A stretch of 44,045 nt of DNA from Nanobdellota archaeon (GTDB lineage Archaea; Nanobdellota; Nanobdellia; Parvarchaeales; Parvarchaeaceae): contig JAJZXE010000005.1 of assembly GCA_021802505.1 (NCBI GenBank), forward strand, positions 1 through 44,045, given 5' to 3'. The notes beneath the pieces are model-generated. The model saw only the letters and a program-made list of their open reading frames with translations. It ran no database searches and was not told the origin of the DNA. Below, in pieces: positions 2,134 through 34,477 of the stretch (its first letter is position 1; the number at the start of each line of letters is the position of its first letter). A program made the translations under genes and the position numbers.

Positions 2134-5100
2134 TTATTTCTCCGAATTCATTTTGCTTATTTCTTCTATGTTCTTTTCTATTTCCTTTATTGCATTATCG
2201 ATATCCTCTTCCTTTGTGTATCTCAGCCTTGCTATTTTCTGTTTCACCGGCAGGGAAACGAGTTTTTCCATTGTAATGTTTCTCGTTAATGCCGCCTTTT
2301 CCGTTTCAAATAGCTGCATTATAATTTTGAGCATTTTATACTGCTTGCTTACCGAGGCATAGGTGTCAACCTCATCGAAAGCGTTTTGCTGAAGGTAATC
2401 CTCCCTTAACGTTTTGGAAATCTCCAGAATAAGCTTGTCAGATTCAGGTAAAGCATCATATCCCACCAGCTGCACTATCTCATTTATCTCCGCCTCTTTC
2501 TGCAGCGTCGCCAAAGCGCTGCCCCTCAGTTCCGGCCAGTCCTGCGCTATGTTCTTCCTGTACCATGCATCTAATCCATCGGTGTAAAGCGAGTAGCTGT
2601 TCAACCAGTTTATCGACGGGAAATGCCTAGCATTCGCCAGCGCTGCATCTAATGCCCAGAAAACCCTTGTCACTCGCAGTGTGTTCTGCGATACCGGCTC
2701 GGATATGTCACCACCTGGAGGAGAAACCGCTCCTATTATAGTTGCAGAGCCTGTTTTTCCGCTGAGAAGTTTTGCGCGTCCGGCTCTTTCATAAAACTCT
2801 CCGATCCTCCTGCCAAGATAAGCGGGATAACCCTCTTCACCGGGCATTTCCTCCAGCCTGCCGGAAAGCTCACGCAGTGCCTCGGCCCATCTGGAAGTAC
2901 TGTCCGCCATCACGGCTACGTTGTAACCCATGTCTCTGTAGTACTCTGCTATAGTTATCCCGGTGTAGATGCTTGCCTCCCTAGCGGCAACGGGCATGTT
3001 TGAAGTGTTTGCGATCAAGATGGTTCTGTCCATCAGCGGCCTGCCGCTCTTTGGATCCTTTAATTCAGGGAATGTAGTCAGTATTTCAGTCATCTCATTT
3101 CCGCGCTCACCGCAGCCAACGTACACTATCACATCCGCGTCGGACCACTTTGCAAGCTGGTGCTGGATTACTGTATTATGGAGAAGAATGGCTCCTTCTC
3201 CCCCGACAAAATTGCTGCCAAACTCAGGAGTTACAACATCATATACATCAAAAGGTCCCGGAATTTCTTCTATCTTTTCTATCCTGTCAAAGTACACAAA
3301 TTCCAGTGCTTTTGCAAGGTAATTTAGCCGTTGTATCTGCAAGACGTTAGAGTGGTTTACCGAAAGAGTTTGTACAAATTTATTAAAGGAATTGACGCTC
3401 ATTTTTTCATTTCCGCCGGTGTAGTTGGTTATTTCTAATCCGTTTGATTTCAGCTCGCTGTAGCTGGAATAGGATCTATATAAATCTTGTACAGTCTGTC
3501 CTTTCAATGGAACTAAATCCACCGCGGTATAAGTATTTCCTTTTGAACTGCAATATGTTTTGATTTTCTCAATTTTTTCGTATTCGTTTTCTTCGGATTT
3601 TACGCTCGAATAGAATTTTTTAAGTTCATTTATGTTCCTTATAAATATCCTGTTTCTATCATTTTCGCTTAGGCTCTTGTTTGTACTGAGGGAATGCAGT
3701 ATTCCCAGCCTGGTCAACAGGTATGACAGTCCTATCGATAACTTTTTACTTGCGGTGGATAATTCTATATTTCCCTTATAATAGCTGCCGTCTCCCAGGT
3801 AGTAGCCCTTTAAAAATGCGGATATAATCTTGTCATTTGATTTCATTATCATTGTAGGTATGTATTTATCAGTAGCAGATCTAGCGTTTATCATTTTTTT
3901 CACAAAGCTGACCAATATTACGCTGTTGACCAGTACATTCGGAGTTTTATCTCTCGGTCTTTCGATTTTACTGTCTAAATTAAATACCTCTTTTATCAGG
4001 TACTTTACCCTATTAAGCAGCTTTTCATCTGAATTGGTGAATACAAACGTGGTTTTTCCCCTCAGATATCCCTCGGCTACATAAAACCCAAGCAGTTCCG
4101 CCAGTTCTTCGGACATGTAATCGGGAATAGTTACTATATTGCCCCTTCTGTCTCCTCTCAGTTTATTTATCCGCGGTAACTTTATATTGAGTGCATCATA
4201 AGCCTGTTTTATCCACTTTATTTTCGGTGCGGGATTATTTTCATTTCTGGTTATCTGGTTTATGATATCCTCTTTCAAACCGCTCTTTATTACCTTCTGT
4301 CTGTTCTTTTTTACCAGCGATTTAAGTTCTGCCTTGATGCTTTCATCGCTTGCCCGGGCCTCTGCAAACAGTGAGTAAACGTCTATATCCTGATCTGTTC
4401 CATTCGTTTTAAATTTCCTTATAGAAACTATATACTCTCCTTCCTTCAGTGAGTTAGCGGGTGTCTCCCTTATCTGGCCGTCCGGATCCAGTCTAAATAA
4501 CTTATGAATAGGCGTTACCTTTACTTTTTTCCCAGTTCTTGTTTTTATTCTTAATACAGAATCGCTTTTTCCTTGATATATGAAATTTGATGCGCTTTCA
4601 GCGACTTTTCCACCGTAGAAAGAACAGGTTTTTAGGGGAGAATCAAGTTTAATCAGCGTTTCATTCTCATCCCGATATTCTATTTTGCCGCTTGATAACG
4701 CCTCTTCATATACTTTCTCTATTGTTTCTATGCTTCCGTCCCCTAAAAGAATCGGCGTATCTCCGGTTACGCACTTACCAGATCCGAAAGGCCCCGGAAC
4801 CGCTGCAGTTCCTCCCATGGCTACCGGAAACATCGTATCTATTACCCTCTGCCCTGTCAACAAAGGTATGAACGGAGGAAGTTTTTCCTTTACCGGACGG
4901 GGAGTTCTCACCGGCCATTTGTTCATCATCTTTATGTTTTCGTTCTTTCCGTCGTTATCCAAAACCATTATCGTGTCTTCAATCGTGTACTCTCCTTCTT
5001 CGGCTATCTTTTTTACTTTTCCTTTTTTATCGGGCGGCAGAAGTATCCTGTGCTTTATAAGCGAGCTCTCTTTTACCTCGCCGATCTCCTCTCCATAATC

Positions 5101-5484
5101 TAGTTCCTGGCCCTCGCTTACTTTGGGTTTGAAATGCCATTTCTTTTCTCTGTCCAGCGAATCTACGGCTACTCCGCTTCCTATGAACGTTCCCTCTTTC
5201 TCCAGGATCTTATCCAACGGTCTTTGTATCCCGTCAAATATGGATCCTATCAAACCGGGGCCTAACTCAACGGACAAAGGCTCGTTTGTATCAATGGCCT
5301 TCTCCTCTACCTTTAATCCGCTGGTGTCTTCATAAACCTGGATTATCGCGTTTTCCCCGTCGAGTTTAACTATCTCCCCCACAAGAGATTTGTCTCCGAC
5401 AAGAACGATATCATTCATCTTAGGATTATCCAATCCCTTCGCAATTACAACCGAACCAGATACGCTTATTACTTTTCCTTCCAT
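2134..5484 (-). CDS. atpA: A/V-type ATP synthase catalytic subunit A, intein-containing precursor (583 aa after splicing)
   Basis: Walker A GPFGSGK|T is split by an insertion; [32 protein letters not shown] motifs. Confidence 0.98.
3175..4773 (-). mobile_element. Intein with LAGLIDADG homing endonuclease (533 aa) in the P-loop of ATPase subunit A
   Basis: Starts CVTGDT right after GSGK; block B VTPIHKL; LAGLIDADG-like motifs LLGFYVAEG and [10 protein letters not shown]; block F VYDVVT; ends LLHN followed by Thr. Removing it restores [13 protein letters not shown]. Confidence 0.95.
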
Positions 5485-9014: not shown

Positions 9015-11312
9015 ATGGAAGAGGATAATAAGATAGGGATAAGCCTAAAAGTTGCGGAAGCACAGCAGGATGATATAGGGCAGAATTCTGTGAGGATAGG
9101 CACCGCCTGGATGAAGCAGATAGGGGTCAGGCCGGGTGATTTTGTAGAGGTAGAGGGAAACAGAAAGACAGTTGCTAAGGTCGATAGAGCACACCCTGGT
9201 GATTTGGGTTTAAACATAATAAGGATGGACGGTACAACGAGAAAGAACGCAAAAGCTGCAATAGGCGAGAACGTAATAGTTAGAAAAGCGGAGGTATTTG
9301 AGGCGGACGTCGTCAATCTTTCTCCGCTTTCAAATGTCTCGATAAGAGGGGCTGAGAACCTTATCGGCAAGCTTCTTCTGGACAGGGCCGTTTCGAAAGG
9401 GGATATAATAACACTGGGCAGCGGCGGCCACAGTTCGTTTGCCTCTTTCTTCGGTGACGATATAATGAGCATATTTGAAAACACGGCTTTTCCTTCGTTT
9501 CAGTTCGGTTTTTCCGAACTGAGGTTTCTTGTCACTTCGACCGCTCCGAAAGGTTTCGTGGTGATAACCGAAAACACGGACATAAACGTCTCTCCTGAGC
9601 CGGTTAAATTTTCCGAAGAAGCGAGGGTAAAGCACGTCAGTTACGAGGACGTCGGTGGGTTATCCGACGAGGTTTCAAAGATAAGGGAGATGGTAGAAAT
9701 ACCATTAAAGCATCCGGAGATTTTCATGAGACTGGGCATAACGCCTCCAAGAGGGGTGCTTTTATACGGTCCGCCGGGAACCGGCAAGACGCTGCTTGCG
9801 AGGGCCGTTGCAGACGAGAGCGAAGCACATTTCATAACGATAAACGGACCGGAAGTAATGAGCAAGTGGGTAGGTGACGCAGAAAAGAAATTGCGCGAGA
9901 TATTCGATGATGCGGAGAAAAACGCTCCTTCCATAATATTCATAGATGAAATAGACGCAATCGCAACCAAAAGAGAAGAAAGCATCGGGGAAGTGGAGCA
10001 TAGGGTGGTTTCACAGCTTCTTACGCTGATGGACGGATTGAAAAGCCGCGGAAAGGTAATCGTGATAGCAGCGACGAACAGGCCGAATGCGATAGATCCC
10101 GCGCTGCGTAGACCGGGAAGGTTCGACAGGGAGATAATGTTCGGCGTTCCGAATGAAAAAGGAAGGCTTGAGATACTTAACATACACACGAGAAACATGC
10201 CCCTGGACCAGAGTAAGGACAAGGGGGTAGACCTCGCATACATTTCAAAAATAACGCACGGATTCGTAGGCGCGGACATAGAATCGCTCATAAAGGAAGC
10301 CGCAATGAACGTTATAAGGAGAAATATAAACGAACTCAATGTAAAGGAGGGGGAAAACATACCCAAGGGCGTCCTGGAAAAACTTACCGTCACAATGGAT
10401 GATTTTAGGGAGGCCCTCAGGTTCGTAAGGCCCAGTGCGATGCGTGAAGTCCTTGTTGAAAGGCCGAGCGTCGGCTGGGAAGATGTCGGCGGTTTGGATG
10501 CAGTAAAGGCGCAGCTGAAGGAGGCTATAGAATGGCCGTTGAAGCACCCTGATTCGTTCAGAAAAGTGGGCATAACTCCCCCGAAAGGGATACTGCTTTA
10601 TGGCCCTCCAGGAACAGGCAAGACTCTGCTTGCCAAGGCGGTAGCGCACGAAACTGAATCAAACTTCATAGCTATAAAGGGACCGGAAATCTACAACAAA
10701 TACGTCGGTGAGAGCGAGAAGAGGATAAGGGAGATCTTTGACAAGGCAAGGCAGGTCTCCCCTTCAATAATCTTCATAGATGAATTAGACAGTATAGCTT
10801 CCTCACGTTCTAATTACGAGGGCAACAATGCAACGGAACAGGTTGTTAACCAGCTGCTAACAGAACTGGATGGCATTGAGCCGCTTAAAAACGTGATTGT
10901 TATAGGTGCTACAAACAGGATAGACAAGGTCGATTCTGCGATACTAAGAACGGGCAGATTTGACAACATAGTGTTCGTGCCGCCGCCGGATGAAAACGGA
11001 AGGAAGGACATACTCAGGGTTTATCTCACTAGAATGCCGATAGAGGGGGATAAGGAAGAACTTATAGAATACCTTGTAAAGAAGACCGAAGGCTATGTCG
11101 GATCAGACCTGGAGAGGCTTACAAAGGAAGCGGGAATGAACGCCCTCAGAAACAACATAGCAGCGACCAAGGTTACAAGGGATGACTTTGAAAAATCGCT
11201 GGAAATTGTAAGGCCGAGCCTGAGTCCGGACGACGCAAAGAAATACGAAGAGATGGCGAAGAAACTTTACAGTAAAAGGGAGAAGGCGAAGGAGTTGAAC
11301 TACTTCGGTTAA
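9015..11312 (+). CDS. cdc48: CDC48/VCP family AAA+ ATPase (VAT)
   Basis: N-domain with IIRMDG, two AAA modules (GPPGTGKT twice, IIFIDE twice, [12 protein letters not shown]), C-terminal NYFG (HbYX-like); GGAGG SD upstream. Confidence 0.97.
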
Positions 11313-17764: not shown

Positions 17765-18553
17765 TTATTTAAAGTAATCCGCCACCATTTTTATTTCGTT
17801 CACGGTGAGTTTCTTGACTTCCTTATAACCTATATTCTTTATTTCATCCGGGATACCGGAAAATTCCGTCCTGCCTTCCCTTTTCGTTTTGTATTCTACT
17901 GCTATCAGTCCGTTTATTATCGCGTTTTTTAGCGTCATCTCCCTTCTGCGGAATATCTCCTGCATTACACCATTTTGTTTTTTGGTCATCTTTATCATCC
18001 TGCTTGTCACCCGGGGTACAGGATAAAACGCATTTTTTGTCACTTCGGTAATTTCAATAAAATCGAAGAATATCTTCTGCACCGCGGAAAAAACTGTGTC
18101 TTCTTTTTTGGACAGCAGCTGCTGCGCTATCGTATTCGGCAGTATCATCACTCCCGTGTCAAAATCATAAAAAGAAATTTTTTCAAGCAAACGGTCTGCG
18201 ATATTGTACGGCGGATTCGATATTATCTTGTTAAATTTAGGGTATACCATATCCAGCGCATCGGCGTTTATTATCTCAACATTCGGATCCAGCTCATATT
18301 TATCTATAAGATATGAATAGCATTTTATTTCCTTCTCGACCGCAATAATGTGGCAGATTTTTCTTGCTTCGGTTTCTATGCTGCCGAATCCCGCACCTAT
18401 ATCCAAAACAGTGTCTGTTTCCTTTAATTCAGCGCTGCCTATTTCCTTGGCAAGAGTGTCTTCATCGACAAGAAAGTTCTGTCCGTTTTCATTGTCGCCT
18501 TTTATGCCGAAATCTTTTACGAGTTTTATTATTGTATCCTTCAATGGAGTCAT
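17765..18553 (-). CDS. rsmA: 16S rRNA adenine dimethyltransferase KsgA/Dim1
   Basis: GQNFLVD, VLDIGAGFG, ISNPPYNI, FYPVPRVTS motifs. Confidence 0.92.
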   Translation of the reverse strand: MTPLKDTIIKLVKDFGIKGDNENGQNFLVDEDTLAKEIGSAELKETDTVLDIGAGFGSIETEARKICHIIAVEKEIKCYSYLIDKYELDPNVEIINADALDMVYPKFNKIISNPPYNIADRLLEKISFYDFDTGVMILPNTIAQQLLSKKEDTVFSAVQKIFFDFIEITEVTKNAFYPVPRVTSRMIKMTKKQNGVMQEIFRRREMTLKNAIINGLIAVEYKTKREGRTEFSGIPDEIKNIGYKEVKKLTVNEIKMVADYFK

Positions 18554-18554
18554 A

Positions 18555-18833
18555 TTACTTGGAGTTTCCTCTCGGTGGCTTCAGCCTTTGAACGGCATAT
18601 CTCTGGCCGCATTCGCCGCAGTTAAATACATACATCTCCTTTGTTTTTCCGCTCTCTCTGATTTTTTCCGTTACAAGCTCAGATTTAAAGTCGTTATCGG
18701 CCCCGCACTTCGGGCATTTGAAAACGAAGTTGAAATCACTGCTGCCAGTTTCACGGTAAATGAGCAGCTTCTCGCTTTTTCCTTCAAAAACAACAAACGA
18801 TTTTTTTATGAAATTTATTTTGTCTATGTCCAT
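18555..18833 (-). CDS. Zinc-ribbon protein
   Basis: CPKCG and CGECG knuckles; stop 1 nt before the ksgA start. Confidence 0.8.
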   Translation of the reverse strand: MDIDKINFIKKSFVVFEGKSEKLLIYRETGSSDFNFVFKCPKCGADNDFKSELVTEKIRESGKTKEMYVFNCGECGQRYAVQRLKPPRGNSK

Positions 18834-23088: not shown

Positions 23089-23565
23089 ATGGACATCGGC
23101 AGCATCGGCTTCCTGGTAATATCCGCATTGTTGATAGGCACTGCGCTGATGATGGTGGCAACCAAAAACCTGATACATTCGCTGCTTTACATGTTCATGT
23201 TCGTAATTTCAGTTACCGCAATGATCTTATACCTAAATGCCGTCTTCCTCGGCGTAGCGGAACTTATAATATACAACGGGGGAATAGTTCTTTTGCTGGC
23301 TATAGGGATAAGCTCCATGCCGGAAGGCAAAGTAAACAGGATAAATTCTAGGCTGGTTTTCCTGCTGCCCCTTCTTGTTCTGGCGATAACGTCTTTTCTT
23401 CTCCTGAAGATGCCCTCCGCTCCTTACAACAGCGCCATTGATTATTCCGTCTTTGGAACGTATTTCTTCCAGAATTACGGCGGTCTGCTCCTTGTCCTTG
23501 CTTTTACGGCGATAGCTAGCATTTTTTCCACAATATACATAATAAGCAGAGGAGATGAACTATGA
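23089..23565 (+). CDS. nuoJ: Complex I-like membrane subunit J
   Basis: KNLIHSLLYM, AELIIYNGGIVLL (TM3), FGTYFFQNY. Confidence 0.88.
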   Translation: MDIGSIGFLVISALLIGTALMMVATKNLIHSLLYMFMFVISVTAMILYLNAVFLGVAELIIYNGGIVLLLAIGISSMPEGKVNRINSRLVFLLPLLVLAITSFLLLKMPSAPYNSAIDYSVFGTYFFQNYGGLLLVLAFTAIASIFSTIYIISRGDEL

Positions 23566-23865: not shown

Positions 23866-25614
23866 ATGCTTTACTTAATACTTGTTCCGCTGCTTGTATC
23901 CTCCGTACTGATAGCCGTTTTAGGGGAAAGAAAGTCATTAAGCTGGGCCCTGTCCCTGATAGCCGCAGTGGTTTCATTTCTTCTTTCCGCCTTTTTTTTC
24001 GTCTCATATTTTAACAGGAATATCCTAGAGAGCTATACCTGGTTTTCATTTTCAGGGTTGATATTCTCCTTATCCTTTGTAGGAAACAATCTTACGCTTT
24101 TTATGTCCCTGCTCGTGTCCTTTATCTCCGTTATGGTGCTCCTATTCGCGGGTTTTTACATGAAGAAGGAGAAACAATCCAGGTTTTATGCAGAGATGTC
24201 ATTCTTCATATTTTCCATGCTCGGGTTGGTGCTATCCGGCAGCCTTCTTTTATTCTTCATATTCTGGGAGTTTGTGGGCATAACCTCTTATCTTTTAATC
24301 GGGTTTTGGTATGATAAGGAAGCTCCTGCTGTTTCAAGCAAGAAAGCGCTGCTGATAACCCGCATAGGGGATCTTTCCTTTTTAGCAGCTATAGTAATCG
24401 TTTTCTCTGCGTTGAAGACATTTTCTATTTCTGCGTTTTTGGGATCTATTCCCCTGCTGCCTCCGATGGTCATATTGACTGTAGGTATATTATTTATCAT
24501 AGCGGCGCTTTCCAAGGCCGCACAGTTTCCCTTTTACACATGGCTTATCGATGCGATGGAGGGCCCGACCCCCGTAAGTTCATTGCTTCATTCCGCAACG
24601 ATGGTGGCAGCCGGTGCATATCTTCTTATCAGACTGCTGCCATTGATATCTGCAGCGGGTTTATCCAGCTTGATCCTGGTGTTCGCATTCATAACCGCGA
24701 TAACAGCGGCGCTGCTTGCCTTAAAGGAGAGGCATTTTAAAAAGATACTTGCTTATTCAACGATAGAGAGCCTTGCCTTTATGTTTATGGCGATAGGTAC
24801 ACTGAATGCCGGCGGCGCGGTATTTTACCTGTTTACACACGCTGTCTTCAAGTCGATGCTCTTTTTCATCAGCGGCGTTCTGGCGATTCTCTTCGGCACG
24901 TATGATATCTATGAATTAAACAGCAGAGGCACAAGGGGCAGCTGGGTAACTATTCCGGCTTTGATAGGATTTGCATCGATAGCCGCCATACCCCCGTTTA
25001 TGAGCTTTTTTGCGCATTCCGCCATAACCTATAATTTCAACATTTATGAGAACTCTGTGTTTGTGGTTATTGCCTTCCTGACCGCTCTGTTTTCTTTCAG
25101 GGCCTTCTTTGTCATATTCGGTAAAAAATCCAGGAATAAGCTTAAGAGAGAATTCACCGTTCTCTTCCCGATAGTCACCTTAGCGGTTATATCAACATTC
25201 GGCGGTGTAATCATCTACTTCTTTAATGCCATAGAGCCGATCCTGCATTCGTTTGATGCGTTTTCATTCATAAGTTTGGCCGCGGCTCTGCTCGGTGTTT
25301 TTGTTTCGTATGAGCTTTTCTACGCAAAAAAAGAGGAGAAAACAGTGTTGAAAATGCAGAGGACAGCGGTTAAGCTGGAAAAGTATAGATATGAGAGGTT
25401 TATAATCGGCGTAGGGAACGCGGTTTCTGATTTCGGTTACTACATCGGTAGATTCGATTCGATGCTCTCCAGTGCCGCATCAAGGGCAGCCGAATCAACA
25501 TTTATCCTTTCATCCAAGACCAGAGAGATAGAGAACGGAGATGCCTTCAGGTATATAACAGCGATTGTAATCGGCCTGATAGCGGTTATACTCGTGGCGG
25601 TGATATTCATATGA
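23866..25614 (+). CDS. nuoL: Complex I antiporter-like subunit L
   Basis: ATG 23866 (MLYLILVP); FWEFVGITSYLLIGFW, KAAQFPFYTWLIDAMEGPTPVSSLLHSATMV, THAVFKSMLF; C-terminal lateral helix region present. Confidence 0.93.
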   Translation: MLYLILVPLLVSSVLIAVLGERKSLSWALSLIAAVVSFLLSAFFFVSYFNRNILESYTWFSFSGLIFSLSFVGNNLTLFMSLLVSFISVMVLLFAGFYMKKEKQSRFYAEMSFFIFSMLGLVLSGSLLLFFIFWEFVGITSYLLIGFWYDKEAPAVSSKKALLITRIGDLSFLAAIVIVFSALKTFSISAFLGSIPLLPPMVILTVGILFIIAALSKAAQFPFYTWLIDAMEGPTPVSSLLHSATMVAAGAYLLIRLLPLISAAGLSSLILVFAFITAITAALLALKERHFKKILAYSTIESLAFMFMAIGTLNAGGAVFYLFTHAVFKSMLFFISGVLAILFGTYDIYELNSRGTRGSWVTIPALIGFASIAAIPPFMSFFAHSAITYNFNIYENSVFVVIAFLTALFSFRAFFVIFGKKSRNKLKREFTVLFPIVTLAVISTFGGVIIYFFNAIEPILHSFDAFSFISLAAALLGVFVSYELFYAKKEEKTVLKMQRTAVKLEKYRYERFIIGVGNAVSDFGYYIGRFDSMLSSAASRAAESTFILSSKTREIENGDAFRYITAIVIGLIAVILVAVIFI

Positions 25615-27023: not shown

Positions 27024-28376
27024 ATGGGATACTTAAATCCGCAGTATGTTTTATTTGGAGGGATTCTTCTCGTCATACTCCTTGATTTTTTAAGATATGG
27101 CCTGGGCGGAAAAGGCAAGTACATCATACATTACATCTCTGCCGGTATACTGGCTCTTGCGCTTGTTTTTGACGTCCTTTACGGAAACATGAACATAAAC
27201 ATGTTTTCCGAGGTCCAATACTCGCAGTTTGTAACCGGCTTCATGCTTTTCATCTCTCTTCTGGTATATCTTTTTATATTATCGGATAAACATGAACACG
27301 GCGTCGCTGCAGATGTTGCGTATCTTTCTGCCATTCTCGGCGCGACGCTTGTCGTTTTAGCGAGCAATCTGATTTCTCTGTTCCTTTCTATAGAACTGCT
27401 TTCGATATCTTCATACGCGCTGGTCTATCTCTATAAATCTGATAGTGCATTGGAGGGAGCAATAAAATACCTGTCAACGGGGATAATCTCAATGGTCATC
27501 CTTATATTCGGTATATCCGTTATCTATGCAGGAACAGGCACGCTGTCATTTTCATCCCTTCACACCGTATCGTATATTCCGTTCATTGCTGGCATTTCGA
27601 TAGTCATCGCAGGGCTCGGTTTCAAATCCACATTAGTGCCGTTTCATATGTGGGCCCCGGATACGTACGAGGCATCAAATAGCTCTATCACTGCCTTTAT
27701 ATCGTCTGTTTCCAAGGCGGCGGGACTTCTTGCAATGATACGCGTCTTCTTTTTTGCTTTACCAGTATCATCTTCATTCGTAACCGCACTGTTCTTATCT
27801 ATCGCGCTTATAACGATTTTTCTCAGCGCATTTCTTGCCTCTGTACAGGACAGAATAAAAAGGCTACTTGCCTATTCAAGCATATCGCAGGCGGGTTTTG
27901 CATTCATCAGCTTGGCCGTTCTGACGACTAAGGGGGTAAACGCCGCCATATTCTACATATTCGCATTTGCCGTTGCGGATGCTATAGTATTTCTTGCGTA
28001 TGGTATGTTTGAAAATAAGAAGATAATCTACAGAAAAGACAGCGGCCGCATGTACTCTGTATCAAAAATAGGCGCCATAAGCTTCTTTATAGGCATGCTC
28101 TCACTCGCGGGTTTTCCGCCGACGATAGGGTTCTTTGGAAAACTTTTGATATTTTATGCGCTTTTCAACAGCGGTTATTTCCCGATAGTAATCCTTCTGT
28201 TTTTCTCCCTGCTTGTTTCGACCTTCTATTACTTTAACATACTTTCAGGCATGCATTTTGCGGATTTGATAAAGAAAGAAAGTGCAAAAAAAACCATAAA
28301 GAGAGAACAGCGTGTAAAGGAGATTATACTAGTGGTATTGACCGTTTCACTGTTTGTAGGGGTCATATTTGCCTAA
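27024..28376 (+). CDS. nuoN: Complex I antiporter-like subunit N
   Basis: IELLSISSYAL, EGAIKY, GFKSTLVPFHMWAPDTYE, KRLLAYSSI, LSLAGFPPTIGFFGK. Confidence 0.93.
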   Translation: MGYLNPQYVLFGGILLVILLDFLRYGLGGKGKYIIHYISAGILALALVFDVLYGNMNINMFSEVQYSQFVTGFMLFISLLVYLFILSDKHEHGVAADVAYLSAILGATLVVLASNLISLFLSIELLSISSYALVYLYKSDSALEGAIKYLSTGIISMVILIFGISVIYAGTGTLSFSSLHTVSYIPFIAGISIVIAGLGFKSTLVPFHMWAPDTYEASNSSITAFISSVSKAAGLLAMIRVFFFALPVSSSFVTALFLSIALITIFLSAFLASVQDRIKRLLAYSSISQAGFAFISLAVLTTKGVNAAIFYIFAFAVADAIVFLAYGMFENKKIIYRKDSGRMYSVSKIGAISFFIGMLSLAGFPPTIGFFGKLLIFYALFNSGYFPIVILLFFSLLVSTFYYFNILSGMHFADLIKKESAKKTIKREQRVKEIILVVLTVSLFVGVIFA

Positions 28377-28478
28377 GACTAGTAGACTACACCGAACAAA
28401 TTACTGTGATAATAAACAATTTTCAGGTCAAATGTGCGTCATATTCACAGTTATGCAGAAGACTTGTAGTCTTTATAT

Positions 28479-28880
28479 TCAGAAATCAAGGCTGTTAACA
28501 AATTGTTTAGGTATTTTGTTTATTAGTTCCTTGTCCTCAGTATAAAGGACAGCATTACTTTTCTTTGCTAGTGCCACATAAACAGCATCATAAATAGTGA
28601 TATCATACTCCAAAGCCAAATCGATGGTTAAAGATGCGAGTTCATCGTCAAAATCAACAAAAGTAAATCCGCTTTTTTCAATTGCTATCGCAGCACTCTT
28701 AATCTTTTCAGGGCTGACCTTTCTGTATTTTAGTGCGTTTAAAACCTCATACTTTATGAGTGAAGGTTCGCTGATCTCTTCTTCTCCTTTTATGAATCGC
28801 TCAAACAGTTTGTTAGCCTTTTCAGAATCCTTCTCTGTTACAAAAAGCTTGAAAATAACACTTGCGTCAAGTACTAACAT
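28479..28880 (-). CDS. vapC: PIN-domain toxin (VapC family)
   Basis: VLDASV, YEVLNAL, TIYDAVYVALA, LYTEDKEL; all four acidic positions present. Confidence 0.92.
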   Translation of the reverse strand: MLVLDASVIFKLFVTEKDSEKANKLFERFIKGEEEISEPSLIKYEVLNALKYRKVSPEKIKSAAIAIEKSGFTFVDFDDELASLTIDLALEYDITIYDAVYVALAKKSNAVLYTEDKELINKIPKQFVNSLDF

Positions 28881-28882
28881 TT

Positions 28883-29119
28883 TCAGTGCCTCTCATTACG
28901 GAACTTTCTTATTATTGTCGTCGTATCACCGTCTTTTTCGAGTTTTATTTCACTGGACAGCCTGTGCATTATAGATAATGCCAAAGCAGTATTCTTCTGT
29001 TTTTCGATTTCATGATTTATGAAACGCCGTATTGCCTCCGACCAGTTAATTTTCAAACGTTTCATTTTGTCCTTGGTTTCTTCATTTACTTTTACCACCA
29101 CTTCAACTTGCCTTGTCAT
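28883..29119 (-). CDS. vapB: VapB-type RHH antitoxin
   Basis: VVVKVNEETKDKMKRLKINWSEAIRRFI...IIRKFRNER; 2 nt upstream of vapC. Confidence 0.85.
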   Translation of the reverse strand: MTRQVEVVVKVNEETKDKMKRLKINWSEAIRRFINHEIEKQKNTALALSIMHRLSSEIKLEKDGDTTTIIRKFRNERH

Positions 29120-29142
29120 ACTTATGTTAGTATCATACTTAT

Positions 29143-29169
29143 TATATATACTTTACGTACGATACGTAC
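29143..29169 (-). promoter_or_regulatory. TATA box with adjacent tandem TACGTAC repeat (putative antitoxin operator)
   Basis: TATATATA at 29143-29150, ~30 nt before ATG 29119; TACGTAC at 29154 and 29163. Confidence 0.55.
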
Positions 29170-29288
29170 ATGTGAATTTAACTCCTATAACACCATAAAA
29201 AACGTTGGGGTGGTATTTAATATTAATGACTAACGCCAAGTAGTAACTATAGAAAAGTATTTATACTAGTTGTTTTCTTAGTAGCTAC

Positions 29289-29675
29289 ATGGAAAAAGAA
29301 AAAAAATTAGAAAGCATACTCTCAGAAGCCATCGATCTGGTCGCTAAAAAGGGACATTATGAACGAAATAAAGGGTGGCGCGTCTACGATGAAAAGGAAC
29401 CCAAGGGCAAGTTCCTGGGAATATTCCAGAAATATGAACATCAGTTCACAGTCGTACACGAGAAGACAAGATATAGAATCGGCGTTGATGAATTGGATGA
29501 AAACGTAACAATATATGATCGGGATACTCCTGTCTTCAGGGCAAGTGCTGCATCGCTTTATGATGAGACGGGCAAAAGAGTAGGGGCTGACCCCTATAGT
29601 TTTCACATAAACTCTTACGTTCCGGGCGAATGGGAACGACACTTAGATGATCTGTACTCAGGCCTCAAAAAGTGA
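29289..29675 (+). CDS. Hypothetical protein (128 aa)
   Basis: Clean ORF with AGAAAAGTATTTATA BRE/TATA 29 nt upstream; no family recognised. Confidence 0.75.
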   Translation: MEKEKKLESILSEAIDLVAKKGHYERNKGWRVYDEKEPKGKFLGIFQKYEHQFTVVHEKTRYRIGVDELDENVTIYDRDTPVFRASAASLYDETGKRVGADPYSFHINSYVPGEWERHLDDLYSGLKK

Positions 29676-29678
29676 TGC

Positions 29679-29748
29679 GTGTTATCTCTATATAACATTA
29701 ATTTTATTTTAGGTTAATTGTATATAACACAAACTAAGGATACTTGTG
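29679..29748 (+). repeat. ~70-bp palindromic element, copy 1
   Basis: GTGTTATCTCTATATAAC-16 nt-GTTAATTGTATATAACAC-AAACTAAGGATACTTGTG; 62/70 identical to 31596-31665 by manual alignment. Confidence 0.9.
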
Positions 29749-29930
29749 AAATTTTATGTATCAATACTGATTAATAAATATCAATAATGAATCTTGTATG
29801 TCAAAAATGACATATAGAAAAATACGAGCCAACGGAAGCATCCTACACCATGGAAGAAAACTATTAAAGAAAGTAAATTAATTTAATATTATTAAAAAGC
29901 AATATAATTAAAAAATTAAAACGGTGCCAA

Positions 29931-30158
29931 ATGGTTTATAGAAACAAAATGAATAGATGCTTATCACAGGTGTATCATAATATAAAACTGCACTTTAGTC
30001 CTTCCTATCAGGCGGCATCCGCATTAGTGTTAAATCAAAAGGTAACTCCCAGCAACTTGGAGCATCTGGTTGCGGTAGCGGAAGGAAAGGAAGCAGGGGT
30101 TACGTACGATTCAGAGGTTTTAAATTACGCAGGGAAGATCTTGAAAGGAGAGCTGTGA
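29931..30158 (+). CDS. Short hypothetical protein or gene remnant
   Basis: 75-aa ORF in AT-rich DNA with protein-like composition; start uncertain (29931 or 29949). Confidence 0.4.
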   Translation: MVYRNKMNRCLSQVYHNIKLHFSPSYQAASALVLNQKVTPSNLEHLVAVAEGKEAGVTYDSEVLNYAGKILKGEL

Positions 30159-30359
30159 AGTTTATACAAAGCCGCCGAAAATACTTGCAGTTACGGCTAG
30201 AGAGATTAGACAGGTTTTTATTACTGTGTGAGTATTCTTACGTGACGCACATTGAATAGTAACTTCAACAATTGCAAGGTCAATAAGTAATAATGGATAA
30301 TGAACGTGAACTGGGTTCATTCCAAATTATCTTGAAAGTGTTTAAAGACATAACTATCT

Positions 30360-30583
30360 ATGACGAAGGTAATAAAGGTAGATGTAGATTAGCGGACTGC
30401 TAAGCAATTCAGGGAAAAGGTTGTACAGATCTATGGTTATAAAAAAGGTGCAATGAAAAAAGCGTTAGAAACTTTAATAAAGTGATGATAACAGAGAGCA
30501 AATTAGACGAGTCCGCATTGCAGGGTGTGATAAAATCAGACAAAATTTCTACAGTAATTCAGCACAAGACCTTTAAAAGATGA
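30360..30583 (+). pseudogene. Antitoxin pseudogene (RHH-like)
   Basis: MTKVIKVDVD*RTAKQFREKVVQIYGYKKGAMKKALETLIK with in-frame TAG at 30390, then a frameshift to ...LQGVIKSDKISTVIQHKTFKR*, whose stop overlaps the next ATG. Confidence 0.75.
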
Positions 30584-30712
30584 ACTTATTGATACAAACA
30601 TCTTCTTGGAGCCTTTTCTTGGCCAGAAAAAGGCAGTCAAATGTGAGGAGTTCCTTAAAAAAAGTTGTTGGGGAGAAGACAGAATCATTGTGGCTTCGTT
30701 TACTTCAATAAA
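30580..30712 (+). pseudogene. PIN-domain (VapC) toxin pseudogene, frameshifted and truncated
   Basis: ATG 30580 is out of frame with LIDTNIFLEPFLGQKKAVKCEEFLKK, a typical VapC N-terminus; resemblance ends at the promoter of the MNT gene. Confidence 0.8.
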
Positions 30713-30751
30713 GCGGTTAAGGTTTAAATTTATACACATCCTTTTGACTAC

Positions 30752-31138
30752 ATGAACAGGACAATAAGTTTAGAATATAAGGAAATTGCACAGGAATTTA
30801 CTAAGCGTGCAGTTGCCAGACTAGGAGGTAAAATAACCGCGATATTACTGTATGGCTCGGTTTCAAGAGGAGAAGCAAATAAATACAGCGATATAGATCT
30901 GCTTGTATTGAGCAATTACGCTAATAGCCCCTTGTTTAGACGCCAGCTATCAAGGATAGCCACAAAACTCGAGGAGGAGGACGAATTCTCTTTTTATATC
31001 TCCATTTTTCCGATATTGCCAAAAGATCTTTTAAGAAACGTTAGATGGGGGGTTCCCTTTATAAGAAATGTAAAAAAAGATGCGGTGGAGTTGTATGGCG
31101 GAAAAATATTCCAAAAACTTACTAGAGAACTATCTTAA
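30752..31138 (+). CDS. Minimal nucleotidyltransferase (MNT) antitoxin
   Basis: LYGSVSRGEANKYSDIDLLV (GS...DxD motif); overlaps the HEPN gene. Confidence 0.92.
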   Translation: MNRTISLEYKEIAQEFTKRAVARLGGKITAILLYGSVSRGEANKYSDIDLLVLSNYANSPLFRRQLSRIATKLEEEDEFSFYISIFPILPKDLLRNVRWGVPFIRNVKKDAVELYGGKIFQKLTRELS

Positions 31139-31493
31139 AGTTGCTGACGAAGCGTTGCGAGATGCTAAATCTAGGTATAATGAGAATAGTTTTCGAGCCG
31201 CTGCTCATTCAGCATATTACGCTATGTTTTATTCGGCAAATGCAGCACTAATAAAAATAGGAGCCGAATTACCTAGAACACATCAAGGTTTAGTTGCACG
31301 GTTCAATTACCATTATATACGAACCAAAATTATAAAAGACAACTTCTCCGATTATTTAAGAACGGCCATGGAATTGCGGCTCAGTGGAGATTACAACGTT
31401 ACAATCGAACCCGATAAACGCTTAGTATTAAGTACTATAAATAACGCGCAAGAGTTTGTAACTACAATAAAAAAGATTGTAAACAAGAAATAA
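31095..31493 (+). CDS. HEPN-domain protein (toxin partner of MNT)
   Basis: Start MAEKY at 31095; SAYYAMFYSANAAL, PRTHQGL, RLSGDY (R-x4-Y variant). Confidence 0.92.
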   Translation: MAEKYSKNLLENYLKVADEALRDAKSRYNENSFRAAAHSAYYAMFYSANAALIKIGAELPRTHQGLVARFNYHYIRTKIIKDNFSDYLRTAMELRLSGDYNVTIEPDKRLVLSTINNAQEFVTTIKKIVNKK

Positions 31494-31595
31494 CAGCCAG
31501 ATTTCTATTATGGAAAAAATATTTGGCAGCAATAACGGCGTAGCCATAAACATTAAGTGGGTTTCGCCTCGGATCTTGATTCCCCTTCTTGATAT

Positions 31596-31665
31596 GTGTT
31601 ATCTCTGTATAACGCTAATTCTATTTTAGGTTAATTGTATATAACACAAACCATGAATATTTGTG
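31596..31665 (+). repeat. ~70-bp palindromic element, copy 2
   Basis: GTGTTATCTCTGTATAAC-16 nt-GTTAATTGTATATAACAC-AAACCATGAATATTTGTG; direct repeat of 29679-29748. Confidence 0.9.
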
Positions 31666-31974
31666 GCCTTCTGCTCCAGTCTAGTTAATTCCATATTTAT
31701 ATTTGTGTAAGATAGTTATTGTATAAATGACTCTCTTCCATAATTTTAAAAGGAGTATACTGTAAGGAGTAGTATAACTATATTTAGTTTCAAGGGGTAA
31801 ATTGACAGTATGCCTTAAAAAGCTAAAATCTCTCTTCACAAGTATTTTTGTGATTTGGTGCTTTACTGTTTTCTTTTAGGTAGAGCACTTTAAGCACCGT
31901 TTGTATTATTTACAGGTATTAAGATAAATGGCCCTTCTTCTCATACGTATACTATTTTAGCATATAAAGCAGAA

Positions 31975-32001
31975 TGTAAACAAATTGTAAACATTTATAA
32001 A
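31975..32001 (+). promoter_or_regulatory. Tandem TGTAAACA repeat abutting a TATA box (putative antitoxin operator)
   Basis: TGTAAACA at 31975 and 31986; TTTATAAA at 31994, 29 nt before ATG 32023. Confidence 0.6.
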
Positions 32002-32022
32002 CTTTAAGCATCTAATAATTGT

Positions 32023-32256
32023 ATGGCAGACAGCGAAGTTATCTCTGTGAGAATTCCGAAGGGCTTAAAGAGAGAATTGAAAAAGAATAAAATAGATTAC
32101 ACGAGGGAGACGCGTAAATTTTTAGAGAATCTTGTGCGGAGAGCACGTTTGGAAGTAACGATGGGAAAGATGATAAAAACTTCTGCTTCATTAAAGAAAC
32201 CAGTAACTAACTTGGCCGCTAAGATAATTAGGGAAGACCGGGAGCATGGGCATTGA
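32023..32256 (+). CDS. vapB: VapB-type RHH antitoxin
   Basis: SEVISVRIPKGLKREL...AAKIIREDRE; overlaps vapC. Confidence 0.88.
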   Translation: MADSEVISVRIPKGLKRELKKNKIDYTRETRKFLENLVRRARLEVTMGKMIKTSASLKKPVTNLAAKIIREDREHGH

Positions 32257-32680
32257 AGAAATAGTTTTGGATTCCTCTGCAATTGTAGCTATGCAAGTGA
32301 AGGAGAAATATAGTACGTGGGTTATGAACAAGTTATCAGGCTACTTTAGTTTTGATATATTAGAATTAACTCCTTATGAAGTGTTTAACGCACTTAGCAC
32401 ATACAAAAGAAGAGGCATGCTAAACAATGATAAATACCAGGATATAATAAATAACACAAAGGATTTTCTAGATGACTGTAATGTTTATGGATATGATAAT
32501 GTGCTTTATTCTGCACTGGCAATATCAGCAGACTCAAAAATAGCTTTATATGATTCTGCCTATATAGCTTTAGCAAACAAGCTAAGATGTAAGCTGTTGA
32601 CTGTAGATCTGGCCCTTTACAATAAATTGTCAGATGTCCCCGCGCTGAAAGAGCTGCTTGTAACCCCTCTTAATAATTGA
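32246..32680 (+). CDS. vapC: PIN-domain toxin (VapC family)
   Basis: IVLDSSA, YEVFNAL, ALYDSAYIALA, LLTVDLAL. Confidence 0.92.
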   Translation: MGIEEIVLDSSAIVAMQVKEKYSTWVMNKLSGYFSFDILELTPYEVFNALSTYKRRGMLNNDKYQDIINNTKDFLDDCNVYGYDNVLYSALAISADSKIALYDSAYIALANKLRCKLLTVDLALYNKLSDVPALKELLVTPLNN

Positions 32681-32807
32681 ATCAAGTTAATACAGCCTGT
32701 TTAAATCCTTTGAAATAGTATTTTTGAAAGACAACGGAAAACAGGTACATAGAGTTACAGCGGTGGCGGGCACGAGTTATTTTATATGGCCCTTTCCTTC
32801 TGATTAT

Positions 32808-33503
32808 ATGGACATTGAAGATCTTCCGTTTAGATTTAAAAAAGGGTCGCGTGCCATAGCCAGCGGAGAATACTCTATCGTGGGGGATATCCACCTCGGT
32901 TTTGAGGAGGATATAAACAGCAGAGGGTATAACGTATGGGAGAAGACCGAGGAAATAACCGATGAGATAAAATCGCTCAGGTCGAAAAAACTCATTCTTT
33001 TAGGGGATATACGGAAGGAATACACCGAGATAAAACCGAAAGAAGGCGGCATACTGATAAAATTCTTCTCCATTCTTTCAGATAATTTTGATGAGATTAT
33101 AATAACAAAGGGAAATCATGACGGCGGCCTCGAAAAGATAACAGGTAGATTTGCAAACATTTCGATGGTAAACGAGTTTATACTCGGTAAAATCGGTTTT
33201 ATGCACGGCCATGCCCTGCCATCCAAAAAGTTTGCGCAGGAAGCGGAAACACTGTGTATGAGTCACCTTCATCCTTCCGTGGTACTAAGGGATTCAAACG
33301 GTATTTATTACCAAAAAGACTGTTTTTTCGTTCTTAGCATCGGTCTGCCCGAAAAATTATATCCGAAATCCGTCCTAAAGAAGGGGATAGTCGTACCTAA
33401 ATTTAATCCGTACATCGGAAGCTCCGCCGATGTGGATTATAAAGGGGTAATGAAATACGCCGAGATAGACAGCAGAATGACCATAGATCTCGCGGTATTT
33501 TGA
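32808..33503 (+). CDS. Calcineurin-like metallophosphoesterase
   Basis: GDIHLG, LGD, KGNHD, MHGH, SHLHP motifs; ATG 32808 lies ~29 nt after a TTTTATA box. Confidence 0.9.
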   Translation: MDIEDLPFRFKKGSRAIASGEYSIVGDIHLGFEEDINSRGYNVWEKTEEITDEIKSLRSKKLILLGDIRKEYTEIKPKEGGILIKFFSILSDNFDEIIITKGNHDGGLEKITGRFANISMVNEFILGKIGFMHGHALPSKKFAQEAETLCMSHLHPSVVLRDSNGIYYQKDCFFVLSIGLPEKLYPKSVLKKGIVVPKFNPYIGSSADVDYKGVMKYAEIDSRMTIDLAVF

Positions 33504-33544
33504 AAAAGGAACGGTTATAAATTTAAACTCTCCTTATAAGTATT

Positions 33545-34477
33545 ATGAGTCCCGGGGAATTTTGGGTTTTTGCGGTGGGAGTGATAGTGCTTGTGCTGCT
33601 GTTCCTCTTCAGTCTGTTCGTACCCAGCCTGTTTTACATCTTTCTTATCATATTTATCGTACTTTTGGCCGTGATATTCTTCATAACATTTGTGAAGAAA
33701 TACAGCCAGTTTGAAAGAGGGATAATTTTTAGGCTGGGAAAGTTCAACAGGATAGCCGGGCCGGGCTGGGCCGTAGTTGTACCGTTTTTTGAGGAGGAGT
33801 ACAAGAAAGTAGATGTGCGTGTTAAAATGATGGATATAAGCTCTCCAGATATATTCACTTCAGATGATCTTAAATTATCTATAGATGGCACCATATACTA
33901 CCAGATAGTCGATCCGGAAAAAGCCACGCTTCAGATAGACAATTACGGCCAGGGTCTATCAAATCTTGTGCAGTCCGCCGTCAGGAATGCAATAGCCTCT
34001 TTAACAATGAGGCAGGTTTTTGGCAGTTTGGACAGGCTTAATGACATATTAGCGGATGCGATAAGACATATGACCTGGAAATGGGGCATTGATGTTCCAT
34101 CGGTACAGATAAAAACGGTTTCTCCTTCTAACGAGGTTATACAGGCCATGCAGCAGCCGGAGATATCGGCCAATCTGCTGCAGGCGCAGAGGTTCAAGGC
34201 CGAGGCTCAGAAGATTGTGATAGAAGCCATCGGAGAAGGTGGAAAGTCGCTGGATGACAGGTCTATAATGTATCTCTACCTGCAGGCGCTTAAGCAGATG
34301 GGGGAATCCAGTTCGTCGAAGATAGTCCTTCCGATGCAGTTCATGCAGAATGCGGGCGGCATGCTCGGAGGAATAGCCGGGTTATCGACAACGGCTTTAG
34401 CTTCTTTGGGCGGGCAGGAAAACGTGCAGAATGTAATTGACAAGATAAAGGAAAAGATGTCCCAGGCAAATTCCTAG
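33545..34477 (+). CDS. SPFH / band 7 (stomatin-like) membrane protein
   Basis: N-terminal TM segments; ERGIIFRLGKF...GPG, VDVRV, IYYQIVDP, WKWGI. Confidence 0.92.
   Translation: MSPGEFWVFAVGVIVLVLLFLFSLFVPSLFYIFLIIFIVLLAVIFFITFVKKYSQFERGIIFRLGKFNRIAGPGWAVVVPFFEEEYKKVDVRVKMMDISSPDIFTSDDLKLSIDGTIYYQIVDPEKATLQIDNYGQGLSNLVQSAVRNAIASLTMRQVFGSLDRLNDILADAIRHMTWKWGIDVPSVQIKTVSPSNEVIQAMQQPEISANLLQAQRFKAEAQKIVIEAIGEGGKSLDDRSIMYLYLQALKQMGESSSSKIVLPMQFMQNAGGMLGGIAGLSTTALASLGGQENVQNVIDKIKEKMSQANS

Follow-up and report, generated by a model that had tools for sequence, protein, structure and literature searches.

A double-palindrome repeat pair around a toxin–antitoxin block in a Nanobdellota archaeon, read as a probable scar of gene gain

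Introduction

The window analysed here is a 44,045-nt stretch of the genome of a Nanobdellota archaeon (contig JAJZXE010000005.1, assembly GCA_021802505.1), and the element in question is a short repeat that occurs in it twice, each copy carrying two palindromic GTTA-N8-TAAC boxes, with an intact MNT–HEPN toxin–antitoxin pair between the copies. An initial annotation, made from the sequence letters, took the two copies for attL/attR-like or cassette sites of an unrecognised site-specific system that moves toxin–antitoxin modules. The locus raises the question of whether a symmetric repeat of this kind is a site on which a recombinase acts, or something left behind when genes were gained in another way. 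We favour the second answer: with a probability of roughly 0.55, the pair is a recombination scar of a known kind, produced by gene gain with a displaced 3' flank, and is a by-product of that gain and not a dedicated site. The repeats probably sit at either end of a block of gained genes, in the manner of attL and attR, and to that extent the attL/attR-like reading stands; for a system that reads the double palindrome we found no support.

The repeat pair and its borders

The two copies form one direct-repeat family of 76 nt, aligned without gaps, identical at 66/76 positions (87%) and spaced 1917 nt apart (Table 1). Over the shorter span delimited in the initial annotation (29679-29748 against 31596-31665), a recount returns the 62/70 identities, gap-free, that had been claimed. 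Neither MAFFT alignment of 340 nt around each copy nor a sensitive self-BLAST of 28001-33600 found any similarity outside the 76 nt, so both repeat borders are sharp. Each copy is spanned together with its own flanks by contigs from independent runs (X12 records 3 and 5, X13 record 15, and X15 record 29), and the pair is therefore not an assembly artefact.

The internal symmetry is as first described: two GTTA-N8-TAAC boxes per copy with 16 nt between them, giving a 32-bp period (starts 29681, 29713, 31598, and 31630); an outer inverted repeat, GTGTTAT...ATAACAC, readable in the sequence; and a trailing CACAA-N11-TTGTG at the end of each copy. A third CACAA...TTGTG unit, of the form CACAA-N6-TTGTG, lies at 31837-31852 (3 matches vs 0.22 expected), and a 23-nt core of the repeat occurs twice in the window vs 0 expected. 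The left end of copy 1 needs a small revision. It had been placed three nucleotides after a stop codon, and a stop does adjoin it, but the repeat itself opens with that TGA (29673-29675), which terminates a 128-aa open reading frame (ORF). Copy 2 lies downstream of the HEPN gene, as stated, starting 97 nt past the HEPN stop at 31493.

The two copies differ at ten positions (29677, 29678, 29690, 29697, 29698, 29704, 29735, 29737, 29739, and 29743), all of them outside the palindromic arms, as had been noted for the eight that fall within the 70-nt span. This avoidance of the arms, which had been taken to suggest selection on the symmetry, has P = 0.0125 over the 28 arm positions named in the initial annotation, which were defined post hoc, and P = 0.11 when restricted to the 16 box-arm positions; the longest identical run between the copies, 30 nt, has a permutation P of 0.047. 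The differences do avoid the arms, and their weight as a sign of selection is modest.

Other repeat-bracketed blocks in the same genome

Further context for the pair comes from the rest of the genome assembly (763,118 bases in 28 contigs, 84% complete). A whole-genome self-BLAST gave 109 non-self pairs shorter than 400 nt, among which eleven same-contig, same-orientation pairs were examined and their genes scanned. Several of the examined pairs bracket toxin–antitoxin, defence-type, or ATPase genes, making at least four blocks (Table 1). The bracketing repeats, 45-114 nt long, are specific to each pair and have no sequence or motif in common with the GTTA-N8-TAAC pair or with each other; there is thus no common site. 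The identity between copies ranges from 84 to 100% across the pairs, the 87% of the GTTA-N8-TAAC pair included.

For two of these blocks the state without the cassette is preserved in relatives. The repeat at C24 23374-23466, beside the MNT–HepT pair, consists of the terminal 82 nt of the gene for RNase P RNA (Rfam) plus 11 nt; 6/6 relatives have one copy and no cassette, their left-flank alignment ending at 23466 and their right one starting at 24250, with an overlap of ~95 nt. At the AAA_14 ATPase block, the repeat at C12 18552-18595 is made up of the last 22 nt of 23S rRNA and its trailer, and the site is empty, with a single copy, in three of four relatives, the fourth (G031) carrying an IS605 TnpB there. 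The NTase–HEPN pair stands at the edge of a 7.7-kb island. The first of its two repeats (C24 29293-29406) duplicates the 3' end of a gene that 6/6 relatives share, and in all of them that gene directly precedes sequence that lies 7.7 kb further on here. The Fic/DOC block is absent from relatives, whose sequence at that place is too diverged to show a single copy, and at two further repeat pairs (C13 12478/14998 and C1 24296/25488) the relatives lack synteny. In all three MNT/HEPN cases, the second copy is found 60-97 nt past the toxin stop.

Copy number and recombinases

The initial annotation looked to further copies in this and related genomes, and only these two were found in all the collections searched. 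The assembly holds no third copy, the next best matches being 29 and 14 nt long. BLAST against 60 relatives found none either, the longest partial match being 48 nt at 77% and the best E value 7e-4; those partial matches that were read (27-33 nt, E 7e-4 or weaker) are AT-rich and TATA-like, with unrelated flanks, and were discarded. An exact 23-mer scan of public genome contigs returned no locus, an exact 19-mer scan of viral contigs two loci, and an exact 20-mer scan of metagenome contigs one, all three with unrelated flanks. The four-arm double-box pattern is present in none of 400 other genomes of the class, and plasmid and phage collections contain no match to 29600-31800. A pattern that fixes the four arms plus AC occurs at 53 loci in genome contigs, where no clear relative of the element was recognised; the best double-box look-alike (L068) agrees at 39/50 positions, 18 of which are fixed by the pattern, and stands in an unrelated context.

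A different arrangement is seen in an uncultured archaeon (L064, 243-266 / 355-378), in which a double-box element of ~110 nt lies within a direct repeat of ~24 nt and has the appearance of a small insertion or local duplication.

Searches with the tyrosine (PF00589) and serine recombinase (PF00239) families found no match in the assembly, which is 84% complete, while control genomes matched, all 14 of them in the case of PF00589. Within the genus, PF00589 is present in 9 of 33 genomes; related strains with tyrosine integrases include G008, G009, and G012. That no recombinase was found and that the repeats are pair-specific both fit homology-anchored gain; more broadly, the lack of an integrase, the lack of a common repeat, and a divergence between copies similar to that between lineages are what homology-anchored illegitimate recombination that displaces the resident 3' piece predicts (PMC5361080).

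In a relative (genome G008, contig C48; L150), 79-nt direct repeats (2679-2757 / 3578-3656) with 98.7% identity surround a 203-aa ORF without a Pfam family, and a gene for a tyrosine integrase lies 5.5 kb away.

The junction at copy 2 and co-occurring strain variants

On its right side, copy 2 adjoins an AbiEi-type remnant (Table 1). At the DNA level the remnant is 79-84% identical to the 5' ends of operons in two other genomes (G032 and G023), where AbiEi (250 aa) and AbiEii (256 aa) are both intact; the remainder of the AbiE operon is absent from this contig. The homology to AbiEi stops 2 nt from the repeat, so copy 2 ends at a rearrangement junction. A simple insertion of copy 2 into AbiEi was considered and rejected, as the 96 nt on its left do not resemble AbiEi (score 20-22 vs a shuffle mean of 18).

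Strain variation was followed by aligning the contigs of four runs (X12-X15) to 27500-33600; gaps in contig cover between the copies in X13-X15 carry no weight. The excision junctions anticipated in the initial annotation were not seen: none of the four joints found links the two copies, with the limit that contigs may miss rare forms. One contig (X12 record 6, depth 9.27, next to 8.66 for the reference-like record 5) covers about 30106-30295 and then 31670-31750, the intervening 30296-31669, including copy 2, being replaced by about 1563 unaligned letters. Going by its size alone, which is that of an AbiE operon, this insert may hold an intact one. The variant suggests an ancestor with the 128-aa gene, the repeat, the 75-aa ORF, AbiE, and the right flank, and the right border of copy 2 may be the mere endpoint of a deletion that removed AbiE. 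This contig differs from the reference at 12/130 and 26/237 positions, and the 87% identity between the copies is near the likeness of this co-occurring strain variant. A joint in X14 from 28153 to 33081, one side of which is only 35 nt long, fits a relative without the island.

A scar of gene gain as the favoured explanation

In the reading that we favour, about 76 bp lying directly after the stop codon of the orphan 128-aa gene would have been duplicated when a foreign block was spliced into a fast-changing island. The inserted block would now be represented by the 75-aa gene, broken PIN pieces, and the intact MNT–HEPN pair; one copy of the repeat would have remained beside the anchor gene, and the other would have been carried to the opposite end, next to the truncated AbiEi. 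The likeliest process would be one-sided homology: the anchor would pair with DNA already in place, and an illegitimate join would close the other end (3'-end displacement). Less likely would be the work of an integrase acting in trans, which would have left a state like that of cis-mobilizable elements. The phased dyad boxes would then be duplicated intergenic DNA, most simply operator or promoter DNA. The primary papers on homology-facilitated illegitimate recombination are reportedly those of de Vries and Wackernagel, from 2002, and of Prudhomme and co-workers, from the same year.

The closest described counterpart is anchor-based illegitimate recombination at rhs, cdiA, and type VI secretion system effector–immunity loci, which leaves displaced orphan 3' pieces (PMC5361080). 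As in such a scar, copy 1 here is on the 3' side of an intact anchor gene and copy 2 is beyond the block, no dedicated recombinase was found, and the repeats are specific to the locus. The likeness extends to the anchor's 3'-side repeat, the foreign block in between, the absence of a recombinase, and locus-specific repeats, and to a divergence between copies similar to that between lineages (PMC5361080). The pair also departs from those scars, in that 73 nt of intergenic sequence plus a stop codon are duplicated here, with no coding tail, and in that the anchor is an orphan within a mobile island of a DPANN-type archaeon; for this pair, moreover, no empty site was seen.

Several observations weigh against this explanation. 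An empty site for this pair, with the gene, one copy, and no block, was found neither in relatives nor in the contigs of the four runs; relatives lack the whole island, including both copies. The repeat holds just the stop codon of the anchor and no gene tail, unlike its analogues in the same genome, and the anchor, an orphan gene, belongs to the island as well. In the variant contig (X12 record 6), the right border of the replaced segment is the end of copy 2, whereas the left border is 547 nt to the right of copy 1. The differences that avoid the arms hint at constraint beyond what a neutral scar would have. Lastly, the analogy with the other loci is indirect and the mechanism is a proposal: we infer that this pair arose as the other scars did, and the same applies to the function of the boxes and to the order of events.

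Boxes as possible operators

The first rival to a scar of gene gain is a tandem operator or promoter module maintained by selection, bound by a dimeric regulator, that would drive transcription to the right, into the 75-aa gene from copy 1 and into vapBC from copy 2. Such a module, with boxes three helical turns apart and TATA-like centres, is compatible with an origin as a scar; as the explanation of the pair, we consider it possible but unlikely. The box centres are CTATATAA and GTATATAA. When same-arm dyad pairs with periods of 18-50 bp were counted across the genome, only period 32 proved to be enriched (7 matches vs 0.2 in shuffles); besides the two repeat copies and one coding-region match, the period-32 loci are the promoters of two of the six AAA_14 ATPase genes. 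These promoters resemble the repeat in having two same-arm dyads, an exact 32-bp period, and AT-rich, TATA-like centres and spacer, and in one of them (C8 37066-37118) a TTTAAATA box lies between the dyads and box 2 abuts the start codon. The arms, however, are TTCGTA/TACGAA and TTGCT/AGCAA there vs GTTA/TAAC here, and neither copy has a gene start within promoter distance, the next start codons being 182 and 357 nt downstream.

Beyond this genome, 5 of the 53 pattern loci (L051, L083, L066, L100, and L087, in two DPANN and three Bacteroidales genomes) have the double GTTA-N8-TAAC 24-68 nt from the start of an AAA_14 ATPase gene, and all five N-terminal fragments match AAA_14, four of them above the cut-off; at about 20 Methanoregulaceae loci (among L048-L100), double boxes stand upstream of a small membrane-protein/Xre pair. 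Along with the AAA_14 promoters of this genome, these loci support boxes that would be phased operators overlapping TATA-like cores. The 53 loci were, however, selected by the pattern itself, and are no demonstration of homology. An operator would also account for the differences between the copies avoiding the arms. Against it, GTTA-N8-TAAC is not enriched genome-wide (14 found vs 21 expected, 4 of the 14 being the boxes of this pair), which implies that there is no regulon, and no cognate regulator was identified. A search of the island for a remnant of an AAA_14 ATPase gene found only noise. The tandem operator, listed as an alternative in the initial annotation, fits the internal boxes best, with its dyads in helical phase.

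Possible cassette or att sites

The initial annotation proposed that a site-specific system acts on the double palindrome and mobilises toxin–antitoxin modules, which would make the copies genuine cassette or att sites; this seems doubtful to us. Among the established sites, dif/Xer is 28 bp long with an 11-6-11 layout, and attC is an imperfect palindrome of 55-140 nt that ends in RYYYAAC (R'', 5') and GTTRRRY (R', 3'). The annotation was right that the polarity of the boxes, GTT...AAC, is opposite to that of attC, the sole AAC...GTT unit being the 24-nt TAAC-N16-GTTA; it was also right that the element is not a dif site, given a box layout of 4-8-4 or 6-6-6 and the absence of PF00589.

Resemblances exist. 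The direct repeats bracket a toxin–antitoxin block, box 1 (TGTTAT-N6-ATAACA) resembles a recombinase core site, and copy 2 is at a rearrangement junction. Clusters of attC sites without an integrase (CALIN), with at least two sites <4 kb apart, are reported from Archaea (PMC9668308); the two copies agree with this spacing rule, being two sites 1917 nt apart with a toxin–antitoxin cargo, and copy 1 directly follows a stop codon, as attC sites do. Unlike attC, however, the element has the opposite polarity and no R''/L''/L'/R' layout over 55-140 nt, the assembly yielded no IntI, and the copies share homologous sequence, which is more than structural similarity.

Elements that have lost their integrase offer a second comparison. 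Direct repeats of this kind are the classical sign of integration. PMC6563490, which treats cryptic integrated archaeal elements, gives crenarchaeal att sites of 29-69 bp and places 14 of 68 elements in the 3'-distal part of protein genes; PMC5704250 describes streptococcal cis-mobilizable elements (CIME) that lost their integrase. The pair resembles such attL/attR elements in being a direct repeat at the 3' side of a gene, with a length of 76 nt that is near the 29-69 bp of PMC6563490. It is unlike them in having no integrase in the block or the assembly, a block of 1.8 kb, copies with 87% identity, and no empty or excised form.

Against a site-specific system stand the two copies only across this genome, 60 relatives, 400 genomes of the class, and the exact-word contig scans, the absence of PF00589 and PF00239 from the assembly and the presence of PF00589 in no more than 9 of 33 genomes of the genus, the lack of an excision joint in the four runs (contigs can miss rare forms), and the other cassettes of the genome, which use unrelated repeats. 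With two copies, no shared site, no recombinase found, and no hybrid single-copy form, the proposal of an unrecognised site-specific system is not upheld. The initial annotation had itself said that its proposal would fall if there were only two copies and no empty-site or circular alleles, and if the copies proved to be remnants of a local duplication or plain promoter operators; this is largely what was found.

A wider version of that proposal, covering acid-mine nano-archaea of this genus, appears improbable as well. It would have integrase-free mini-cassettes (a toxin–antitoxin pair or an ATPase gene, 0.8-1.9 kb) moved by a dedicated, undescribed mechanism. The genes behind which this mechanism acts, those for RNase P RNA, 23S rRNA, and proteins, would each have 45-114 bp on their 3' side duplicated; in this island the boxes would be sites for a recombinase acting in trans, and the two copies a working attL/attR.

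Possible local duplication, structured RNA, or MITE-like element

Very unlikely, in our view, is a neutral remnant of a local duplication that had nothing to do with an insertion and was trimmed on both sides by later rearrangements: it would suit an island that is a patchwork of broken genes, with borders that could be later breakpoints, and the weak constraint statistics, but it leaves unexplained both the start of copy 1 exactly at the stop codon and the match in layout with three other bracketed cassettes.

Hardly credible, finally, are two alternatives raised in the initial annotation: a structured RNA, whether a small RNA or part of an untranslated region, and an element like a miniature inverted-repeat transposable element (MITE). 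The nested inverted repeats and the position of differences in predicted loops would speak for them, but Rfam returned nothing for the element, neither at the gathering threshold nor with E values as high as 1, three of the four fold z-scores are weak (+ strand, -0.84 and -1.81; - strand, -0.08 and -2.67), copy 2 on the - strand alone standing out (3/200 shuffles), and two copies with a terminal inverted repeat of only 7 bp and no target duplication do not make a MITE. Copy 1 shows no duplication, and the CTTCT that flanks copy 2 on either side belongs to conserved AbiEi sequence.

Significance

If a scar of gene gain is the correct explanation, the pair itself is ordinary and its value is in the context: a very small symbiont genome that itself has no recombinase genes would turn over genes for toxin–antitoxin pairs and defence, with blocks slotted in behind conserved gene ends, including those of RNase P RNA and 23S rRNA genes. 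The toxin–antitoxin and ATPase cassettes behind the RNase P RNA and 23S rRNA genes are the more notable by-product of this analysis. The pair also serves as a caution that symmetric boxes in a two-copy repeat need not signal recombination; a new mobile system would be at hand only if the boxes prove to be recombinase sites.

The toxin–antitoxin island and its surroundings

The window is ordinary chromosome, with genes for an A-type ATPase, SMC, ribosomal proteins, and a Nuo operon, and the metagenome runs that contain it come from acid-mine drainage and tailings, no RNA run being among the 19 listed. The repeat pair is within a low-GC island of 4.4 kb (Table 1). In 14/14 same-genus loci that were fetched, the nuoN gene is followed by the phosphoesterase gene across a spacer of roughly 40-155 nt without an island; the island is thus specific to this lineage. 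Its gene order is PIN/VapB (- strand), 128-aa gene, copy 1, 75-aa ORF, broken PIN, MNT–HEPN, copy 2, and VapB–PIN.

Table 1. Coordinates of the repeat pair, its neighbours, and comparable loci; positions are those of the window unless a contig (C8-C24) is named.
Feature	Position	Strand	Remarks
Repeat copy 1	29673-29748	+	boxes 29681-29696 and 29713-29728; tail hairpin motif 29728-29748
Repeat copy 2	31590-31665	+	boxes 31598-31613 and 31630-31645; tail motif 31645-31665
AbiEi-type remnant	31668-31751	-	promoter region and first 9 codons, ATG at 31694, cut off beside copy 2
222-nt stretch	31751-31972		replaced by 21 other letters in X12 record 6; contains the third CACAA-N6-TTGTG
Repeats around MNT + HepT	C24 23374-23466 / 24250-24342		93 nt, 84%; brackets 783 nt; locus L117, 23176-24342
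Repeats around AAA_14 ATPase gene with own promoter	C12 17070-17114 / 18552-18595		45 nt, 89%; L122
Repeats around NTase + HEPN	C24 29293-29406 / 30691-30803		114 nt, 96%; L118
Repeats around Fic/DOC gene	C22 9542-9629 / 10544-10631		88 nt, 100%; includes last 32 nt of S3Ae gene; L121
AAA_14 promoter dyads	C8 37066-37118; C12 17160-17211		two near-identical boxes, exact 32-bp period
Low-GC toxin–antitoxin island, 4.4 kb	28377-32806		GC 0.28-0.40 vs flanks 0.42-0.47
Left flank, nuoN-like gene	27024-28376		
Right flank, metallophosphoesterase gene	true start about 32807		
PIN toxin	28479-28880	-	Pfam PIN, E 5.6e-15
VapB-type antitoxin	28883-29119	-	NCBIfam VapB, E 4.5e-11, below curated cut-off
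128-aa orphan gene	29289-29675	+	stop codon opens copy 1
75-aa conserved small ORF	29931-30158	+	three protein clusters, 79-100% identity
Broken frames	30293-30752	+	30293-30364: 24 aa like middle of island PIN, tblastn E 0.004
Weak PIN N-terminal piece	30579-30752	+	Pfam PIN, E 0.12, 13.4 bits, below cut-off
MNT-type nucleotidyltransferase	30752-31138	+	Pfam NTP_transf_2, E 4e-10
HEPN	31080-31493	+	Pfam HEPN, E 1.3e-13
VapB-type antitoxin	32023-32256	+	NCBIfam VapB, E 8.4e-15
PIN toxin	32246-32680	+	Pfam PIN, E 3.2e-5

The two small proteins that flank copy 1 appear to be lineage-restricted. The 128-aa protein matches no Pfam or NCBIfam family and falls in two clusters only among 5.8 billion proteins, the other being a 53%-identical relative (P0002), the genome of which is outside the 40 family genomes; it shares its C-terminal end with P0002, and the gene is thus not cut short. 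A 34% homologue of it in genome G004 is placed after a 149-aa gene, and as no such element lies downstream of that homologue, a tie between the element and the 128-aa gene was rejected. The 75-aa ORF has a 104-aa homologue in G031 (70% DNA identity over 184 nt), and a tie to this gene was likewise rejected, there being no repeat upstream of that homologue. Among the broken frames, a stretch at 30360-30485 with an internal stop, read by eye as a broken ribbon-helix-helix antitoxin, matched no family.

At 2134-5484 on the - strand, the window encodes the catalytic subunit of the A-type ATPase with an intein that contains a LAGLIDADG homing endonuclease (Pfam Intein_splicing and LAGLIDADG_3).

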